Part shown: one piece after another, positions 16,325 to 25,581 of the stretch
Numbering within the stretch: the first letter of the stretch is position 1
How the letters are laid out: every line of letters starts with the position of its first letter
Source of the DNA: an uncultured Alkaliflexus sp.
Lineage (GTDB): Bacteria; Bacteroidota; Bacteroidia; Bacteroidales; Marinilabiliaceae
NCBI GenBank assembly: GCA_964396555.1
Contig: CAYNFX010000001.1
Coordinates: forward strand, 14,685 to 78,684
Direction of reading: 5' to 3'
DNA: 64,000 nucleotides
Position numbers and translations under genes: made by a program
The notes under the pieces: model-generated
What the model was told of the DNA's origin: nothing
The model's database searches: none
Seen by the model: only the letters and a program-made list of their open reading frames with translations

Positions 16325-17311
16325 ATGTTGTTTAGATCTCTGCATAATAACTCTATAAATGCTGCGCTGGCTACATCGCTGGGTGTGGCACTGTTGTGGT
16401 TGCGATATTTTGCAGTTGATATTACACACTATACAGCATTAGATAGTCCGTCAATGCCGCTTTGGGATGTGGTTATCAATCCGTTGTTTGGTTATTCTGC
16501 ATTCACTGCAGCCCTGTCTTCTTTAGGACTTGTGTTTCTTAATGGGTTGTTTCTTAATAGAATGGCTGCTAGGTATGCGTTGATACAGCGTCAAAGCCTT
16601 ATTGTATTGTTGGTTTATGCAATGTTTAGTTCAGCCTTTCTTTCAGTGCAGAAACTAAGTCCTGTGTGGGTTTTTGTTTTGTTCTTTGTTTTGGGATTGG
16701 ATAATCTTTTTGCAGCAGTAGATCGTCGTAACCCTTCAGTGAAGTGTTTTGATGCAGGGCTCTTGCTGGGTTTTGCTTCGCTATTCTATGCCAAAGGCGT
16801 TTTCTTTTTCCCTCTCTATATTCTTGCAATGGGAGTATTGAGACTCCATTCATTCAGGTCAGTGGCTGCATCATTCATGGGACTTCTTTTCCCATTTGCA
16901 ATGAGTTTTGCCTATTATCTTTTCCTTGACAAAGGAGCTTTTTTTTATGAGATATTAGTTGAGAACTTAGTTGCCAATCCTGGTCAATACAGCCATACTT
17001 TGTACTCCAGAATATATATGGCATTTTTGATTCTGATTACTGGTGTTTCCCTTCTGGTATGTATCAGGCAGATGAATGTTCAGAAAATAATAGTAAGGCG
17101 TTATTTCAGGATCTTTATATGGATTATACTTGTCAATGCAGCTGTGGTAATGAGCCCGTTCTTTTCAATGGAACTTATGCCACTTTCTGTAAGTGCACTT
17201 GCTCTGGTAGTTTCGAAATGGTTTGAAGTAATGCAGCGTGACAGGGTGAGAGAAATTGTATTCCTTGTTTTCGTTATTGTAACAGTAGCAGGACAGTTTT
17301 TGCTTTACTAG
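16325..17311 (+). CDS. Multi-pass membrane hypothetical protein (DUF6427-like)
   Basis: About 9-10 hydrophobic helices directly after purD, a position recalled for DUF6427 in Bacteroidia. Confidence 0.65.
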
Positions 17312-20300
17312 CCCTGCTTTTTAATCCATTTGGTTAGTATGTTTTCCAAAGTCTCGAAACGTACTGGTTTCCCGATATAATCATTCATTCCGGCTTCAAT
17401 GCATATTTCTCGATCTCCCTTAAGGACATTGGCTGTCATAGCAATGACAGGAAGCCTGAACCCTCTTGATCTAAGTTCCTTAGTTGCATCCAGACCATTA
17501 AGCTCCGGCATTTGAACATCCATCAGAATAAGGTTGAACTCACTGCCCTTTTTGTCCATCAGATCTACTGCCTCCCTGCCGTTGGTAACGATAGTGACTT
17601 GATAGTCTAGTTTCAGGAGCATTTTCTCAGCTATCTTCTGGTTTATCGGATTGTCTTCTACGAGCAGAATGTGCTTTTTGCCCATATTTGTCTTATCATC
17701 TTCAGTGTTGATTTCGACGCTTTTATGCTCCAGGTTTTCTGTCCCTATATTGAAAAGCTCTGCTGTTGCAGCAAATAGAGTCGAATGCTTAACAGGCTTA
17801 TGTAATATCTTGTCAAATCCTTTGAAATTGTGAGGAGTAATAGTTTTTGGATTTGCTACAAGAAGCAATGCTTTAATAGAGGGTGACAATTCCTTTACCT
17901 CCTGAATAAACTTGTTTTCTATCTCTCTTAGCAAATGATTGTCTGCTATCAGCATGTGATAATTGGGGTACTTGCTCATGAACTGGATACCTTCCTGAAC
18001 TGTTGCAGCTGTAGTAACATTCATGCCCCAAATAGTAAGAGTCTTGCCTAAAAGCTTGGTGTTGGTTTCGTGGTCATCAACTATTAGCACATTAAGGCCA
18101 CTGAACCTCCCTTTGAATGAATTGATTGAAGGAGTTTGAATATCTATTTTAAAGGGTAGGACGAAGTGGAAGACACTCCCCGGGTTGGTTTTGGACGAAG
18201 AATAGGTCGGATTTGGACTTTCAATCCAGATTTTGCCATGCATAAGCTCAACCAGCATTTTTGAGATACTTGTTCCCAGTCCAGTTCCTCCGTATTTCCT
18301 GGTAGTTGATCCATCAAGCTGGGTGAAGGAGTCAAAGACCTTTTCTAGCTTTCCAGCAGGTATTCCAATTCCAGAATCCTGAACTTTGAAATGAAGGCTA
18401 ATATCATCCCCTTTGCGAGATACAACAGCTACAGACAGAATGACCTCACCCTGGTCTGTGAATTTGACGGAATTCCCCAAAAGATTGGTGAGTACCTGAA
18501 CAAGGCGTCCCTCATCACCAATAAGGATTGAAGGTATGTTCTCGTCAAGGTCGACATTAATCTCAAGACCTTTTTCATTTGCCTTAAATGATATCTGATC
18601 TAGCAGGTATTCTACAGTGTCGTTAATGTTGAAAGGCTGATATTCGATCTTCATCTTACCAGCTTCTATCTTTGAGAAGTCGAGTATATCATTGATGATT
18701 GAGATCAGGTTGTCGCATGATTTGGATATTACCGACAGAATGTTACGTTGTTCCTTCTCAAGATCAGTATTTGCCAGAAGCTCGGAAGCTCCAACAATAC
18801 CGTTCATTGGGGTACGAATCTCATGACTCATATTGGCAAGGAATTCTGATTTAGCTTTATTGGCTTCGGCTTCCTTCTGTTGAAGTTCCTTTTGAGCCGT
18901 GATATCCATAAATGCCTCAAGCCTTACTGATTCGTTGTTTAGCTTAATTGGTATTATATTCTTGAGGACTGTTCGGGAAATATTGTTTTCAGGAACAGTT
19001 AATTGTTCCTCACGGGTTTGAACGTTCAGCCCTGAGTTTATCTGGTGATAGTGGTTTTCAGAGTTTAACTTAAAAAACTGACTGTATGAATGGGTATTTA
19101 TATAAAGGCGAGCATCATCAAGGCTGTCAAAACCCATGGTTTTGGCAGCTGTCTGGTTAATTTCAATAATTTTCTGCTTGTCGTCTACGACCATAATACC
19201 TACAGGCAGGTTCTCGGTTATATTTTTCAGGTTTTCAATAGATTCGTTGAGAGACTCAGTAAGTAAACGTTTCTCTGTGATATCTTCCCTGATAATAATG
19301 AAATTGGATATAGTGTTTGCTTCATTAAATACTGGAGAGATCTGAACCCTTTCCCAGTATGTCATTCCTGCTTTGTTGCGAGTCTCTATTTCACCGCTCC
19401 ATGTATTACCAACTTGAATGGTGGCCATCACTATCTCAGAGAAATCATAGATACCGTTGTTGCTGAAAAAATATGGACGTGTACCAATCACCTCCTCCTT
19501 TAAATATCCAGTCTTTAATACATAGCTTTCATTAACGTATTCGGTAACCCCTCTGGTGTTGGTAATCATTATAGCCACCGGACTCTGCTCGACAGCCATC
19601 AACAGTTTTTTGCTGTTGAGTTCAGCTTTTTGTCTGGTTAGGATGACCTTTGAAATCTGGATTATTACAATGTAGGTGATACCTCCTGCGAAAAATGTAA
19701 AAAGGATCAGGCTTATGTATTTAAGTCGATTATATCGTTTCAGTACATTAATACTGGTCTCACTTACTGACAGTACATTTTTTTGTATATCAAAAGAAAT
19801 TTTCCTTTCTATTTCGAAGATTCTGTTGAAGATCCCATCTACTTGTTTCATGTAAAAGGCAAGAGTCTCATTAATCTGATCCCTTACGTTTACTGCACTG
19901 TCAGATGCGGCCTTGATTGTTGCGTTGATTCTGGAGGAAAGGGACTGTAGGTCGCTTATCGCCGGGTAGAGTTGCCTTACTTCGCTTATTGTACCTGTAT
20001 ACCAGTCTGCTTCATAGACAATCAGCTCGATTATTTCATCGGCTGAAGCCAGATTGGCAGAATTATGGTACTCGTACATTCCTCCTTGATCCAATATCCT
20101 AAGGATGTTCAGACACTCGTCAATCTTTAGACCTATCTGCGAATGTATATTTGATAGTTGCTGCGGGTGTGTTGCTGAAAGGTAAGTTGTGAATGCTATC
20201 TGGGTGTTGAGAAGCTGTTCCTTAAGTATAAAGTCAAGTTTCTGTTTCTGCTCCTGGTTACGTATCATCTGCTGATAGCGGAGCGTATAGTTTTTGTCAA

Positions 20301-20472
20301 AGTAGTTTTCTATAAACAGAATAATGAAGATAGTAAACAGGAAAATGCCAAGAAGCCAAAACAACTTATTAATTACCGGTTCTTTTATGAACGGCAATAG
20401 GCTGTCCCTGTACTTAAGCTTAAATAGCCTTTTACTTGAAGCAAGTTTCGTTTTAATTCCTGCTTTTATCAT
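17308..20472 (-). CDS. Hybrid sensor histidine kinase (2 TM, periplasmic domain, PAS/PAC, PAS-like, HisKA, HATPase, two receiver domains)
   Basis: [31 protein letters not shown]-box, [22 protein letters not shown], receivers VLIVDD...IAD and LLVED...LMDVQMP. Confidence 0.93.
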
Positions 20473-21331
20473 CTTCGGGCATTACATTGCTTTGAAATTC
20501 AAGCTGACTTTTTCTGTATATCCCATGAGATTTGAAAATGTCGGTTCCAACAGGAGAGTTTAGCATTGACATAAAAGTGTGAGCCAGTCCGGGATACCTT
20601 GATGTTTTTAGTACAGATGCATAAACATCGTATTTTGTATCAGGCATGTTCAGACTGATAGTATCGACTTTTTCGATATTACCGTTGTAGAAGAAACTTG
20701 ATGTCCAATCAAGTCCCAGACTTGCCTCTCCGTTATAAATCCTTCTAATTATCCCTCTATTATCAACAGACAGTGCTATACTGTTGTTTAATACTTCAGA
20801 ATAAACTCCTGCATAACTTAGTATCTGTTTTGTTACAAAGCCCAGGGAGCTGGTCTCTGGATTGGCAATAATGACAGCATATTTTTCTTCTTGCATGGAT
20901 GTGAGATCACCCCCGAAGCCTTCCGGGTTACCTTTAGAAACCACAAAAACCAGTCTGTTGGTGCCTATGTATAAAGAATCGCCAATTATGTTTGGCTGTA
21001 TTTCCCTTAGAATGTCAAATCCTGATCTAATATCGGGAATGAAGAGATCGCCAGTCTGAGTATCAGCAATAATACTTACAAGATTTCTGATATTACCGTT
21101 TTGTATTGTAATACGGCATTTGTACATTCTTTCAAATTGCTTGCATATTGAATCCAGTGGAGCTGAGACCCCGTTTTCACAATATAATACCAGCTCAGGG
21201 ACAATAGTTTCCTGAACCTGTCTGTCGGATTTCCTTTTTTTTTGCCCGCAGGCAAGAAAAAATACGATAAAAATCGTAATCATAAGTCCGGCAAAAAACT
21301 TAGATAGTATGCCTCTAAGAGCTTTCTCCAT
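20453..21331 (-). CDS. ModA/WtpA-like substrate-binding lipoprotein with divergent binding motifs
   Basis: Lipobox FLAC; [27 protein letters not shown] segments match the molybdate-binding protein fold. Its 3' end overlaps the kinase start by 20 nt. Confidence 0.7.
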
Positions 21332-21575
21332 AATTTCCCCTTAATCCTGTAACGTTTAACACACAAACCATTCCGGTCAAATGGTAAAAGTTTTGTCAAC
21401 ACACATCTTCTGAAACTGTAAACGTTTCATAGACCCAAAATCGTATTATGACTAAAGAGATTTTGTAACCGGATACTCAGCACGAATACCTTGCATTCCG
21501 CAAATTAGGTAAAGGGGAGATAAAATGCTTTTGTTTTATCACTAAAAACCGATTATTTGTCAAAAATAATCGAAT

Positions 21576-22643
21576 TTATCTGGTGATAATGTGCCTTTTA
21601 ATCCATCTGGGGACTACAAAAACACCAATCAGAAGGTAAGAATAGTAGCTTATAAGTCTCCAAATAAATGCAAGTGCTATTCCGGTGCCAGCGGGGATAA
21701 GATAACCCAGAAAGCCGTGAAAAGCATATTCGGCAAAGCCGCTTCCTCCGGGAGTGGGACTTACCAACATCATTATCCATATTACCAGCTGCTTTCCGAA
21801 GACCAGTATATGTCCTTCCGGATCAAGCAAACGGAAGCCGAAGAATGCAACAATGAGTGCATTAACTAGCCAGTAGCGTGCCGTCCAGCTAATTGCAGTG
21901 GCCATAAAGGCCTTTATCCAGTTGCTGACCGGCCAATGCTTGAATTCATTTGAGGCCTGAATAAGTTCGGAACCAGATTCATTTGCCTGTGGTCTCCACT
22001 TACGGATAAAGGAAAGTTTGAAAATCCACAACAGCAGCAGTTTTAAACCCCTGGGGTTTACGAAAAGCCCATAGACTACTGCAAGTATGTATAAGAATTT
22101 TATGCTGTAACCTACCAGAGCAAAGACTACAAAGGGATTCTTATACCAAATTATGGCTGTTTCGGAAGGACTTAGTGAGAACAAGGAGAGACCTCCTGCA
22201 ATAAGGAATATTGCAGGCAAAGCAATAATGAAATACAACTCGTCAAGGAATGAAGTAAGTAGCACTATTGCGGTGCTTCTTCCTAATCGTATGCCTTCCT
22301 TGTTGATAAAAAATACTGCTACGCTGGTACCTCCAACTACCGAGGGAGTTATTGCTGATGTAAATTCCCAAAGCATAATTATATTGAACACCTTTCGCCA
22401 GCTTAGTTTTTTTTCGCTCAGGATACGTAAGCGAAGCATATAACCAAAATCACGTATTGTCATAAATAGTACTGCGACCAACAACCAAAATGCAGTATGA
22501 AGGTTGAAAGTAAGCAGGCTAAGCGATCCGGGCTCATATTCCTTGTACATCAGATAACCAGTTACAGCAATTCCTATTGCGATTGGCAAAATAATTTTTA
22601 CAGGGCTTATGCTCTTAAGGACTTTTGCTGAATTATCAGTCAT
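21576..22643 (-). CDS. Lysylphosphatidylglycerol synthase TM / UPF0104 flippase-like membrane protein
   Basis: R..R...L, ITPS.VGG, PTPGGSGFAE, IWR..SYY motifs; multiple TM helices. Confidence 0.8.
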   Translation of the reverse strand: MTDNSAKVLKSISPVKIILPIAIGIAVTGYLMYKEYEPGSLSLLTFNLHTAFWLLVAVLFMTIRDFGYMLRLRILSEKKLSWRKVFNIIMLWEFTSAITPSVVGGTSVAVFFINKEGIRLGRSTAIVLLTSFLDELYFIIALPAIFLIAGGLSLFSLSPSETAIIWYKNPFVVFALVGYSIKFLYILAVVYGLFVNPRGLKLLLLWIFKLSFIRKWRPQANESGSELIQASNEFKHWPVSNWIKAFMATAISWTARYWLVNALIVAFFGFRLLDPEGHILVFGKQLVIWIMMLVSPTPGGSGFAEYAFHGFLGYLIPAGTGIALAFIWRLISYYSYLLIGVFVVPRWIKRHIITR

Positions 22644-22751
22644 CTTCTGGTGTTCTTGTAGCGGATTATTATCTGGATACTACAGGAATTAGGATTCCAT
22701 TGCTTCTGCAGTGTTGTTACCTAACAAACTGTGTGCAGAATTTGTTTGTGC

Positions 22752-22791
22752 AAAATAAAAAAGCCCGTCGACTGACGGGCTTTTTTATTTT
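22752..22791 (-). terminator. Bidirectional intrinsic terminator downstream of tRNA-Ala
   Basis: Perfect 18-bp inverted repeat AAAATAAAAAAGCCCGTC-GACT-GACGGGCTTTTTTATTTT. Confidence 0.88.
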
Positions 22792-22805
22792 GCCTCTTGG
22801 TTTTG

Positions 22806-22879
22806 TGGAGACAAGGGGAGTCGAACCCCTGACCTTTTGGCTGCCAGCCAAACGCTCTAGCCAACTGAGCTATGCCCCC
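22806..22879 (-). tRNA. tRNA-Ala (GGC)
   Basis: Cloverleaf with acceptor GGGGGCA/TGTCTCC including the G3-U70 alanine determinant, anticodon arm TTTGG-CTGGCAG-CCAAA, GGTTCGACTCC T-arm. Confidence 0.95.
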
Positions 22880-22896
22880 ATGCTTTTTAGCGCTTG

Positions 22897-22928
22897 CAAA
22901 TATATTTTTTTCCGGGATAAGTAACAAG
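22897..22928 (-). promoter_or_regulatory. Promoter for tRNA-Ala
   Basis: Minus strand CTTG-N20-TATATTTG. Confidence 0.7.
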
Positions 22929-23208
22929 ATATTCATGTGAATTTATTCTGAGAGGCAATTTGTCTGGCCTGTACTTTTATATAAATACAGATAAATGCTT
23001 GTTATATTATGTTTTGAGCTTTTGTGGAGATTACATTTACACTCGTTAATAAATTTTAAAAAACACCCCTGGCTTTAATTTTAAGTTTAATTGCTTGTAA
23101 TATGTTTGCATAAAGATTAATTTTAGGCTCTCTTTACTGAGGAATTTTTAGGGAAAAATAATAGGGAGCCCGGTATTGTTAAGTTAACAAACAAATTACC
23201 ATTTTATT

Positions 23209-23901
23209 ATGATAGAGGTTAAGAAGTCACCAAAGGCCAATTTGGAGAGCAAAAAGCCGATTTTTACCCAGATCGGCCTTGTTGTAGTCCTATCATTGGT
23301 TCTTGTTGCATTTGAATGGACATGGACCGACGTAAATGTCGATCTTCAAGAGACTACTGATGAGGTTGCAGTTGAAGAAGAAATTGTGCCAATTACTCGT
23401 CAGGATGAGACCCCACCGCCCCCACCGCCCCCACCGGCAGTTACAGATGTTCTGAACATTGTTGACGACAATGCTGATATTGATATTGAGTTGGAGATTA
23501 TGGACTCTGAGTTGGATGAGACTGCAATGATCGATTTCACCCAAGTTGTTGCAACTGAGGAAGAACGTGATAATGAAGGCGAGATCTTTATGATTGTTGA
23601 AGAGATGCCTGAGTTTCCAGGTGGACAAGAAGCCCTTCAAAAGTATCTTGTAGAAAACATTCGTTATCCAGTTATTGCTGAAGAAAACGGTATTCAAGGC
23701 CGTGTTTTTGTCAGCTTTGTAATTAACCAAAAGGGTGAGGTTACAAATGCTACAGTAATGCGTGGTGTTGACTCTCACCTGGATCGTGAGGCTCTTCGTG
23801 TGATTCAGGCTATGCCTAAATGGAAGCCCGGAAAGCAAAGAAATTCACCTGTAAGGGTATCATGCGTAGTTCCTGTAAACTTTGTACTAAGGCAACGATA
23901 A
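23209..23901 (+). CDS. tonB: Energy transducer TonB (paralogue 1)
   Basis: TM helix, poly-Pro/acidic linker, EEMPEFPGG, YPVIA...IQGRV.V.F, LDREALRV, WKPG TonB C-domain. Confidence 0.92.
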   Translation: MIEVKKSPKANLESKKPIFTQIGLVVVLSLVLVAFEWTWTDVNVDLQETTDEVAVEEEIVPITRQDETPPPPPPPPAVTDVLNIVDDNADIDIELEIMDSELDETAMIDFTQVVATEEERDNEGEIFMIVEEMPEFPGGQEALQKYLVENIRYPVIAEENGIQGRVFVSFVINQKGEVTNATVMRGVDSHLDREALRVIQAMPKWKPGKQRNSPVRVSCVVPVNFVLRQR

Positions 23902-23926
23902 GCCTGAATTTCAGGTTTTAGATAAT

Positions 23927-23959
23927 AAAAAGGGGCTGCCGTAAGGTCAGCCCCTTTTT
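23927..23959 (+). terminator. Intrinsic terminator after tonB1
   Basis: AAAAAGGGGCTGCC-GTAA-GGTCAGCCCCTTTTT. Confidence 0.8.
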
Positions 23960-24109
23960 GTGCAGGGATTTGAACAGAAAGTTGATTTTTTTGTTCGGTT
24001 TTTGTTTACTTTTAGGTTTGTATTTCGTACATTATTACTAGTATCAAGGCCCAAATATATTGATTGGATCCTGTTTCATAAGGAGTTAACCTATTAAAAT
24101 TTGTGCGTC

Positions 24110-24805
24110 ATGATAGAAGTAAAGAAATCACCTAAGGCTGATCTTGAAAAGCGGAAACCAGTTTTTACTGAGATAGGCTTAGTAGTAGTCCTTTCTTTGG
24201 TGCTTGTTGCCTTTGAATGGACATGGACAGAAGTCAATGCTAAAGTTATTGCAGCTGAAGGTCTTGTAGATGTAGAAGAGGAGATTGTCCCTATAACACG
24301 ACAGGAAGATAATACGCCTACCCCTGCAGTGCCAAAAGCATTTGATATCCTTACTATTGTTGAAGATATCTATGATATAGATGAAGATCTTGATTTCCTG
24401 AACTCCGATTTTACTGAAGATGCAGCAGTTGATTACAATCAGATTTATCAAGCTACATATGATGATGCGAGAGTGGAGAGTGATGAGATTTTTAGAATTG
24501 TTCAGGAAATGCCTGAATTTCCCGGAGGGGAAGGGGCTCTTTTCAAGTACATAGCAAACAACATAAGGTATCCTGTTATTGCTGAAGAGAATGAAATACA
24601 AGGTCGCGTGTATGTACAGTTTGTAGTTAATGAGAGGGGTGAGGTTACAAATGTTGAGTTATTTCGTGGAGTTGATACACACCTAGACCGTGAAGCTTTA
24701 CGTGTAGTTCAGTCTTTACCTAAGTGGAAACCCGGAAAACAAAGGAACATGTATGTTAAGGTAGCATTTATTATTCCTGTTAACTTTGTCCTTCAACAAA
24801 AGTGA
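24110..24805 (+). CDS. tonB: Energy transducer TonB (paralogue 2)
   Basis: Same architecture; ATG at 24110 gives MIEVKKSPKA like paralogue 1; lacks the poly-Pro run. Confidence 0.92.
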   Translation: MIEVKKSPKADLEKRKPVFTEIGLVVVLSLVLVAFEWTWTEVNAKVIAAEGLVDVEEEIVPITRQEDNTPTPAVPKAFDILTIVEDIYDIDEDLDFLNSDFTEDAAVDYNQIYQATYDDARVESDEIFRIVQEMPEFPGGEGALFKYIANNIRYPVIAEENEIQGRVYVQFVVNERGEVTNVELFRGVDTHLDREALRVVQSLPKWKPGKQRNMYVKVAFIIPVNFVLQQK

Positions 24806-24825
24806 GCCTGATTGAAGAATTTGCA

Positions 24826-24859
24826 GAAGGGCTGTCAGTAGAACAGCCTCTTTTGTTTT
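24826..24859 (+). terminator. Probable intrinsic terminator after tonB2
   Basis: GAAGGGCTGT...ACAGCCTCTTTT imperfect stem followed by T-rich tract. Confidence 0.6.
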
Positions 24860-24894
24860 GATGTGCTGTTTTTATTTTAAAATTTAGTTTTTAT

Positions 24895-25581
24895 ATGGAA
24901 GTTAAGAAATCACCAAAAGCAAACCTTGAAAGCAAGAAAGCGGTTTTTACACAGATCGGGCTTGTAGTGGTTCTTTCTATTGTGCTTATTGCTTTTGAAT
25001 GGACCTGGTCGGATTACAGTGTTGACATTGATGTTACAGATAGTGAGGCGAGCGTTGAGGAAGAGATTATACCTATTACTCGGCAGGATGACACACCGCC
25101 TCCACCGCCTCCACCACCGGCCGCTGCTGACATTCTCAGTATAGTAGAGAATGATGCAGAACTTGATGCAGAACTTGAGATTTTTGATTCAGAGTTGGAT
25201 CAGGCTGCAGCTGTTGATTTCAATCAGGTCTATCAGATAGTTGAGGATGAAAGAGATGAAAGCAATGAAATTTTTGTGTTTGCTGAGGAAATGCCTGAAT
25301 TTCCAGGAGGTCAAGTTGCTATGCAAAAGTTTATAGCTGAGAATATTAAGTATCCAGTTATAGCTAAGGAAAACAGAGTTCAGGGCAGGGTTTACGTTGA
25401 GTTTGTAGTTAATGAGAAGGGTGCTGTTACAAATCCCAGAGTAATGCGTGGCGTGGACCCTAATCTTGACCGTGAAGCCCTTCGTGTAGTTCAGGCTATG
25501 CCAAACTGGAAACCTGGTAAACAAAGAAACAAGGCAGTTAAAGTTTCTATTACTCTTCCTGTAAACTTTAAGATTGAGTAG
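24895..25581 (+). CDS. tonB: Energy transducer TonB (paralogue 3)
   Basis: MEVKKSPKANLE start, poly-Pro run, TonB C-domain motifs. Confidence 0.92.
   Translation: MEVKKSPKANLESKKAVFTQIGLVVVLSIVLIAFEWTWSDYSVDIDVTDSEASVEEEIIPITRQDDTPPPPPPPPAAADILSIVENDAELDAELEIFDSELDQAAAVDFNQVYQIVEDERDESNEIFVFAEEMPEFPGGQVAMQKFIAENIKYPVIAKENRVQGRVYVEFVVNEKGAVTNPRVMRGVDPNLDREALRVVQAMPNWKPGKQRNKAVKVSITLPVNFKIE

Follow-up and report, generated by a model that had tools for sequence, protein, structure and literature searches.

An orphan ModA-fold lipoprotein and the adjoining hybrid histidine kinase as a candidate two-part periplasmic sensor in Marinilabiliaceae

Few receptors that depend on a binding protein have been characterised (PMC8050422). 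In Staphylococcus aureus, the SBP_bac_11 lipoprotein HptA activates the kinase HptS, and a binding protein likewise drives the kinase in TorT/TorS, LuxP/LuxQ and XylFII/LytS (PMC8050422). Here we analyse a 64,000-nucleotide window from an uncultured Alkaliflexus sp. (Bacteroidota; Marinilabiliaceae; assembly GCA_964396555.1, contig CAYNFX010000001.1, positions 14,685 to 78,684), in which the gene for an orphan ModA-like lipoprotein (hereafter the binding protein) runs into the start of a gene for a hybrid sensor histidine kinase. ChvE/VirA and AioX/AioS are further established examples of kinases fed by a binding protein, and the accessory lipoprotein QseG reportedly activates the kinase QseE. 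A first-pass annotation, made from the sequence alone, had proposed that the orphan ModA-fold protein was repurposed as the input of the kinase, on the precedent of LuxP/LuxQ, TorT/TorS and ChvE/VirA. That principle is indeed known, but its list of precedents missed HptA/HptS, whose lipoprotein belongs to the same Pfam family. New here are a binding-protein lineage with no detectable relation to HptA, an unnamed helical-hairpin sensor domain and interchangeable outputs; a literature search, limited in reach, found no description of this module of binding protein and sensor domain.

We consider it probable that binding protein and kinase make up a two-part periplasmic sensor and represent the Marinilabiliaceae branch within a larger SBP_bac_11 clade that is signalling-only and marked by the motif YC(G/E). 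Both genes are observed with their folds, domain architecture and co-transcription, with strict co-occurrence and co-inheritance across lineages and output types, and with no cognate ATP-binding cassette (ABC) transporter. Among the 133 genomes of the window's GTDB family, 82 carry both genes, 44 carry neither and 7 have the kinase without the binding protein, while not one has the binding protein without the kinase. No modBC adjoins the pair at any of the 51 family loci fetched for gene order, and no ModB-like permease lies within 5 kb at any of 80 sister-clade loci. The first-pass annotation had held that homologues normally sitting beside modBC would speak against repurposing; these counts instead support it, as do a sensor domain shared among kinases, cyclases and phosphodiesterases, co-varying evolutionary distances, and RNA contigs that cross the gene junction.

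The arrangement most like this one is HptA/HptS(/HptR), where a transporter-less SBP_bac_11 lipoprotein sits beside a membrane histidine kinase and is its ligand-binding input (PMC8050422). Yet sequence search detected no link between HptA and the binding protein, for which a PDB search at E values up to 10 returned ModA proteins only. HptS combines a dCache-like sensor with a classical kinase, whereas the window kinase is a hybrid with a helical bundle and a hairpin; HptA binds a sugar phosphate; and HptA/HptS is Gram-positive, whereas the window pair is from Bacteroidota. The window pair therefore lies outside the HptA/HptS family, sharing with it neither detectable sequence homology beyond the Pfam match nor a dCache sensor. 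TorT/TorS, which senses TMAO in Escherichia coli and Vibrio, is similar in another respect, in that an orphan periplasmic binding protein docks on the all-helical periplasmic domain of a receiver-bearing hybrid kinase. However, TorT has a type I fold (Peripla_BP_1), unlike the type II, ModA fold of the window protein, and TorS has a double four-helix bundle as its sensor and an HPt of its own, which the window kinase lacks. The TorS sensor (IPR037952; 3O1H/3O1I) reached a Foldseek E of about 0.1 with TM-scores of 0.15-0.21 against the window domain, with no Pfam match. In XylFII/LytS of Clostridium beijerinckii and LuxP/LuxQ of Vibrio, too, the kinase is regulated via its periplasmic domain by a binding protein that has no transporter, and the LytS sensor is a four-helix bundle bound side-on by XylFII (PMC8050422). 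XylFII and LuxP, however, are Peripla_BP_4 proteins that bind sugars or AI-2, and these systems gave no sequence or significant fold match to the window sensor domain.

The binding protein is a member of Pfam SBP_bac_11 (PF13531; 97 bits) but misses the membership threshold of the modA equivalog TIGR01256, with 42.1 bits against a cut-off of 62.5. At its N-terminus are a signal peptide and a lipobox (FFLAC28), whose Cys28 is at least 90% conserved, followed by the basic residues GQKKRK. In Bacteroidota lipoproteins the signal for export to the cell surface is acidic, and this difference makes periplasmic anchoring of the binding protein likely. Modelled by AlphaFold from 31 homologues (pLDDT 88), the protein has the ModA-type, type II periplasmic binding-protein fold: the top Foldseek matches are ModA structures at TM-scores of 0.84-0.87, the closest being 1wod (TM-score 0.86, E 1e-16).

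The pocket inside this fold has been rebuilt. Profile alignment to a solved ModA (8zj6) bears out the earlier observation that CENGV and GNIRNL replace the oxyanion motifs of ModA (Table 1). All five residues that we take to be the oxyanion ligands of Escherichia coli ModA (1AMF/1WOD) have changed: Ser12 aligns with Gly54, Ser39 with Ile81, Ala125 with Leu163, Val152 with Asn191 and Tyr170 with Trp209. Glu52-Asn53, invariant in the family, is placed where the oxyanion would bind in ModA. Conservation in the lipoprotein is highest in the inter-lobe cleft (E52, N53, N78, NPETS157-161, D190, W209 and S211 are invariant or nearly so), which suggests that the cleft still holds a ligand, though not an anion. 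Because the anion loops were rebuilt (AAASL to CENGV, GxSG to GNIR), this ligand is most likely a small molecule that is neither molybdate nor another oxyanion. In short, the binding protein shares its fold, Pfam family and nearest solved structures with ModA/WtpA, but it lies under the equivalog cut-off, has its anion residues replaced, lacks a ModBC partner and falls outside the ABC-linked branches in a tree.

The kinase had been described as having a periplasmic domain between two transmembrane helices, PAS domains and two receivers, with no HPt or DNA-binding domain, and the domain search, which found neither of the latter two in the kinase, showed this to be accurate. By whole-protein profile score, TorS and BarA are among the nearest matches of the kinase core. 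The first receiver retains its acceptor Asp843 and has lost the MPxMdG loop and the Thr/Ser position, whereas the first receiver of a sister-clade hybrid kinase (locus L120) is canonical. The periplasmic domain, about 195 residues between the transmembrane helices, is modelled (pLDDT 82) as a four-helix bundle that runs into both of these helices and carries a beta-hairpin; NQ72-73, GG130-131, N140, D145, D156, E164, P170, R217 and E220 are its conserved residues. A Pfam search with this domain at E values up to 10 gave noise, and NCBIfam matches were confined to the kinase core. Foldseek against the PDB found nothing below E 0.01, with generic bundles, the 4HB chemoreceptor domain and TorS at about 0.1.

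Both genes lie on the minus strand, co-directional with a flippase-like gene upstream. The TAA stop codon of the binding-protein gene (20455-20453) is reached after the ATG of the kinase gene (20472), confirming the 20-nt overlap reported before, and no further in-frame start occurs among kinase codons 1-24. The translational link that had been drawn from this overlap stands for the window locus, where the overlap is real, but not for the family as a whole, in which the gap between the genes ranges from -41 to +214 nt and the overlap is confined to the window's subclade. The window sequence is present in bioreactor, digester, wastewater, compost and faecal metagenomes. In four metatranscriptomes contigs cover both genes, and two contigs, X25#6 (20407-20732) and X27#22 (20349-20579), span the overlap. 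RNA contigs end exactly at 21483 in two independent studies and at 21472 in a third, and an imperfect Bacteroidota -7 box, CTAATTTG, is found at 21508-21501. The binding-protein/kinase transcript may thus start independently, some 150 nt before the ATG, a tentative placement because the 5' end is read from assembled contigs. A sigma-70 promoter scan did no better than shuffled sequence (21 versus 17.1), as expected for Bacteroidota.

The rebuilt pocket and the missing transporter bear on a different reading, in which the lipoprotein is a ModA-like transport component serving a distant ABC importer and its adjacency to the kinase is mere conserved synteny. We judge this very improbable. It can appeal to the ModA fold and the ModA structures at the top of the Foldseek matches, to the name 'molybdate ABC transporter substrate-binding protein' that several Marinilabiliaceae members bear in NCBI records, and to the distribution of modB, which is commoner in family genomes with the binding protein (46/82) than in those without (4/51). 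That correlation follows genus and genome size and is probably phylogenetic, although a link to Mo or W physiology is possible. On the other side, no modB above the cut-off was found in the window's contig, in the 2.17-Mb assembly (whose sole SBP_bac_11 gene is that of the binding protein) or in G338, a closed genome of the same genus; the absence of modB noted for the window in the first-pass annotation thus extends well beyond it. As many as 36 of the 133 family genomes, the closed one among them, have the binding protein and no modB, and where modB is present, its own, weakly similar ModA adjoins it (for example, G354 C4). The lipoprotein scores below the modA cut-off, the equivalents of Ser12 and Ser39 are replaced, the first loop has an invariant Glu, none of the 51 + 80 loci has a permease, and ABC-linked relatives fall outside the clade. 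Instead of being encoded with modB/modC, or in a genome having them, the binding protein of the window lacks a cognate transporter and is adjacent to, and co-transcribed with, a kinase. A separate observation concerns naming: the sensor-linked, YCG-type binding protein at L120:5001-5762 scores 68.4 bits on TIGR01256, above the 62.5 cut-off, so that automatic pipelines would name it ModA despite the hybrid kinase downstream.

The pairing is seen beyond the close relatives of the window pair. Close homologues of the binding protein are few (36-138 clusters among 5.8 billion proteins) and all from Marinilabiliaceae, namely Geofilum, Alkaliflexus, Natronoflexus, Alkalitalea, Saccharicrinis, Carboxylicivirga, Labilibacter, Plebeiibacterium and Thermophagus. 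An exhaustive profile search returned 90 representatives at E below 1e-30, and a sister clade is recognisable by the motifs YCG(I/T)TM, GGSGxL, NPxxGSIG, TDS(K/R) and INW. Scanning metagenome contigs with a peptide pattern from alignment A4 yielded 173 relatives, of which 80 loci were fetched. Sixty-two sister-clade loci had at least 750 nt of downstream DNA, and in 56 of these a large open reading frame (ORF) with the sensor domain follows directly on the same strand, at gaps of about -58 to about +210 nt, mostly below 60 nt. The outputs of these 56 ORFs are HisKA+HATPase_c (33), REC (27), HPt (9), GGDEF (6), EAL (4) and HD (1), and none contains an ABC component. Nearly all 56 downstream proteins match, at residues ~40-230 (26-120 bits), a profile hidden Markov model made solely from the periplasmic domain of the Marinilabiliaceae kinases (residues 59-252). 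Landmarks common to both clades are NQ at the start of helix 1, the GG...N...D...I.Y hairpin, E..L.P and R..E. The downstream gene therefore encodes a membrane signalling protein with a shared periplasmic domain of ~190 residues, the window kinase being a source of the profile. A phylum-wide search with the N-terminal kinase profile returned mostly the 40-residue linker and PAS cap (positions 253-299), with the periplasmic part in 3 genomes.

A maximum-likelihood tree of 111 binding proteins places all 73 sensor-linked proteins (73/73), together with 21 rows of unknown context (mostly short contigs), in one clade (support 100/99) that contains 0 of the 11 ABC-linked proteins. Within it, the Marinilabiliaceae family (100/100), the sub-clade that holds the window protein, is sister to the YCG clade (98/87), which puts the binding protein inside the sensor-linked, YC(G/E) group and apart from ABC-linked proteins. 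ModA-like motifs, for example CAAxM and AGAAS, occur in those relatives that do adjoin a permease and an ATPase. The window kinase and the kinase of L120, a YCG pair, have the same architecture and are 39% identical over 1039 aa, with 30% identity between their binding proteins; this homology makes the two-gene unit older than the family. Across 65 non-redundant pairs, binding-protein distances correlate with those of the sensor domain at r = 0.73 and with those of the kinase core at r = 0.39, and the partial correlation with the sensor domain given the core is 0.72 (Mantel test, p = 0.001). In the YCG subset the coefficients are 0.60 and -0.14, respectively. By these distances, it is the sensor domain that the binding protein tracks, rather than the output.

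The breadth of the pairing also speaks to the suggestion that the adjacency is meaningless, two unrelated genes having been kept together by slow rearrangement within one family. We find this hardly credible. The close homologues do all come from a single family, but the flanks vary widely while the pair stays (at least 20 upstream and at least 10 downstream neighbours at the family loci), and the pairing recurs on unrelated contigs with different outputs. In G646, a genome from another class of the phylum, 2 nt separate the stop of the binding-protein gene from the start of a non-hybrid kinase gene, whose product the sensor profile also matches, and the relative P0247 is fused to a PAS kinase. 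The metagenome loci are 40-60% divergent, which argues against a single recent mobile element.

Some relatives depart from the two-gene plan. At L115 (G646:C56), a YCG binding protein is flanked by two kinases, a cytoplasmic multi-PAS one of 943 aa and a membrane one of 665 aa with the sensor domain, which hints at a branched pathway. In the metagenome proteins P0247 and P0246, a cytoplasmic YCG-type binding domain, with neither signal peptide nor transmembrane helix, is fused to PAS repeats and a histidine kinase; judged from this architecture, the periplasmic binding fold has here become a sensor domain inside the cell. Many relatives of ~500 aa have two tandem SBP_bac_11 domains (P0250, P0267, P0290, P0301, P0315 and P0323), and in P0290 an ABC ATPase domain is fused ahead of the two. 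A search of plasmids with sister-clade proteins matched clostridial modA genes only.

Several points weigh against the two-part sensor, above all the cases in which one part has gone. In G218 and G351 (both of one genus, g2), in G305 and in G314, the binding-protein gene is cleanly gone and the kinase is kept beside the flippase-like gene; G304, a congener of G305, retains the binding-protein gene, and no binding-protein homologue was found elsewhere in the four genomes. As the sister clade also has the pair, the gene order reads as loss in these kinase-only loci, in at least three lineages. At conserved periplasmic columns the partner-less kinases show 3-10 deviations, against as many as 10 in divergent held-out clades with the partner retained, and N108 and D128 are the only columns changed repeatedly. 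The columns are not clearly relaxed, and the kinase therefore seems to retain its function when the binding protein is lost. That it can, on this evidence, work without its partner is the main argument against an obligate co-receptor, and the sensor domain may have an input of its own. Nor was a response regulator found near the locus, and a search of the genome for HPt domains found them only inside ORFs of 694 and 1425 aa, none stand-alone. The metagenome loci were selected with a peptide pattern specific to the clade, neighbouring genes are inherited together in any case and correlated distances are no proof of contact, and the RNA evidence consists of assembled contigs that possibly contain DNA.

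The losses speak for a reading in which the lipoprotein acts independently of any ligand, as an accessory subunit that stabilises the kinase or constitutively inhibits or activates it (as with QseG), and the signal is read by the kinase's own bundle or PAS domains. At least three lineages retain the kinase, its periplasmic domain still conserved, after losing the binding protein, and the hairpin motifs (GG...N...D, E...L.P, R..E) are kept across the superclade, as expected of an intrinsic site. We nevertheless regard such a subunit as unlikely, since the cleft between the lobes is where the lipoprotein is most conserved, which argues for a bound ligand, and the two-lobed binding-protein fold has been kept, with high model confidence.

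In the two-part sensor that we favour, the lipoprotein, with its two-lobed ModA fold kept and its loops rebuilt, would bind a small non-oxyanion ligand in the periplasm and dock, in a ligand-dependent manner, onto the four-helix-plus-hairpin domain of the kinase. Docking would shift the transmembrane helices and so set the balance of autokinase and phosphatase activities. The signal would be integrated with the two PAS domains, both cytoplasmic, and the C-terminal receiver would hand it on to a partner presumably encoded elsewhere. We infer the docking, its dependence on ligand, the ligand class, the direction of regulation and the downstream regulator.

A broader proposal is more tentative, and we would put its chances a little short of even. 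It holds that the binding proteins form an undescribed, large, monophyletic and signalling-only ModA-fold lineage, which is co-inherited with its own sensor domain and has been plugged into kinases, hybrids with or without HPt, cyclases and EAL/HD phosphodiesterases across phyla. The Marinilabiliaceae pocket would have been retuned from oxyanion-like (CGITM / GGSG) to acidic-polar (CENGV / GNxxN), presumably for a new, non-anion ligand, in a branch that tolerates loss of the binding protein. If true, the lineage would amount to a two-part extracytoplasmic receptor for general use, with a scope like that of the LuxP/LuxQ or TorT/TorS families. A whole receptor family is indicated by at least 173 metagenome loci, by 82 of the 133 genomes of a single bacterial family and by a sensor domain outside Pfam and NCBIfam models, and the molybdate name given to several of its members would be corrected as a recurrent misannotation. 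Sister lineages with and without the binding protein form a natural experiment and can be compared, and the family is a tractable case of a transport protein turned signalling input whose pocket was later retuned. Cultured hosts exist in Geofilum, Alkaliflexus, Natronoflexus, Saccharicrinis and Carboxylicivirga.

The remaining candidate partner is encoded next door. At 51/51 family loci the order on one strand is flippase-like gene, binding protein, kinase, and the flippase-like gene stays by the kinase after the binding protein is lost. The lipoprotein might accordingly work with the flippase-like protein on a lipid or glycan of the envelope, the kinase being a mere neighbour, and envelope genes lie nearby (a TMEM260-like GT-C enzyme and a CE4 deacetylase). 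This seems to us very doubtful. Of 201 genomes of the order, 88 carry an orthologue of the flippase-like gene (40-58% identity) with neither partner adjoining, and in the sister clade no upstream gene is conserved (42 loci show 80 Pfam families). In the outgroups L081 and L098 the flippase-like gene abuts TM328-purD, the genes that flank the kinase in the window, so the pair looks like an insertion beside it in the family's ancestor. RNA contigs begin at ~21483, which is intergenic, and none covers 21554-22174; the flippase-like gene is probably a separate transcript. We also rejected it as a third component of the sensor, given its wide occurrence without the pair, the lack of a conserved upstream gene in the sister clade and its apparently separate transcript.

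Table 1 Features of the binding-protein/kinase locus (window coordinates) and pocket segments of the binding protein (residue numbers)
Feature	Position	Strand	Basis or content
Flippase-like membrane protein gene, 355 aa	21576..22643	-	Pfam LPG_synthase_TM, TIGR00374
Leader of the binding-protein/kinase transcript	21332..21483	-	RNA contig ends; 5' end tentative
Orphan SBP_bac_11 (ModA-fold) lipoprotein gene, 292 aa	20453..21331	-	ORF and Pfam
Overlap of binding-protein and kinase genes, 20 nt	20453..20472	-	Sequence; spanned by RNA contigs
Hybrid sensor histidine kinase gene, 1054 aa	17308..20472	-	Transmembrane helix, periplasmic domain, transmembrane helix, PAS, PAS, HisKA, HATPase_c, REC, REC
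Kinase transmembrane helix 1, residues ~38-58	20299..20361	-	Sequence; continuous helix in model
Kinase periplasmic sensor domain, residues 59-252	19717..20298	-	Four-helix bundle and beta-hairpin at 130-154
Kinase transmembrane helix 2, residues ~253-275	19648..19716	-	Sequence; model
Two cytoplasmic PAS domains, residues 294-400 and 414 to ~520	18913..19593	-	Domain search
Kinase core, HisKA 540-605 and HATPase_c 652-775	18148..18855	-	Domain search
Receiver 1, residues ~795-905, degenerate	17758..18090	-	Sequence, domain search, comparison with L120
Receiver 2, residues 935-1045, canonical	17338..17670	-	Domain search
ModA YAAASL replaced by YCENGV	residues 50-55		Profile alignment
ModA YAGSSTL replaced by QNGNIRNL	residues 77-84		Profile alignment; family QN(G/D)(N/C)xxNL
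ModA PAG loop replaced by ANPETSSLG	residues 156-164		Profile alignment
ModA EDVR replaced by VDNR	residues 189-192		Profile alignment; family VD(S/N)R
ModA IVYxxD replaced by DWTSS	residues 208-212		Profile alignment; family (I/L)DWxSS

The genes nearest to the pair include, besides the two envelope genes, three tandem TonB paralogues, hflX and purD. The TonB paralogues (TonB_C; 230, 234 and 228 aa) lie at 23209-25581 on the plus strand and are followed by hflX; the first is 61-69% identical to the other two, and in G218 (locus L071) the flippase-like gene likewise has a TonB homologue upstream. A tRNA-Ala gene (GGC) at 22805-22879 on the minus strand has a perfect Bacteroidota -7 box, TATATTTG, upstream at 22903-22896, and explains why RNA depth is very high at 22796-23200. 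After it, just upstream of the flippase-like gene, a 20-bp palindromic hairpin at 22750-22793 forms a bidirectional terminator. RNA contigs from three runs read G>A at 21290 and 21291, and those of one run have an extra A in the A-run at 21256, in the signal-peptide region of the binding protein; these variants most likely reflect strain variation or homopolymer error.

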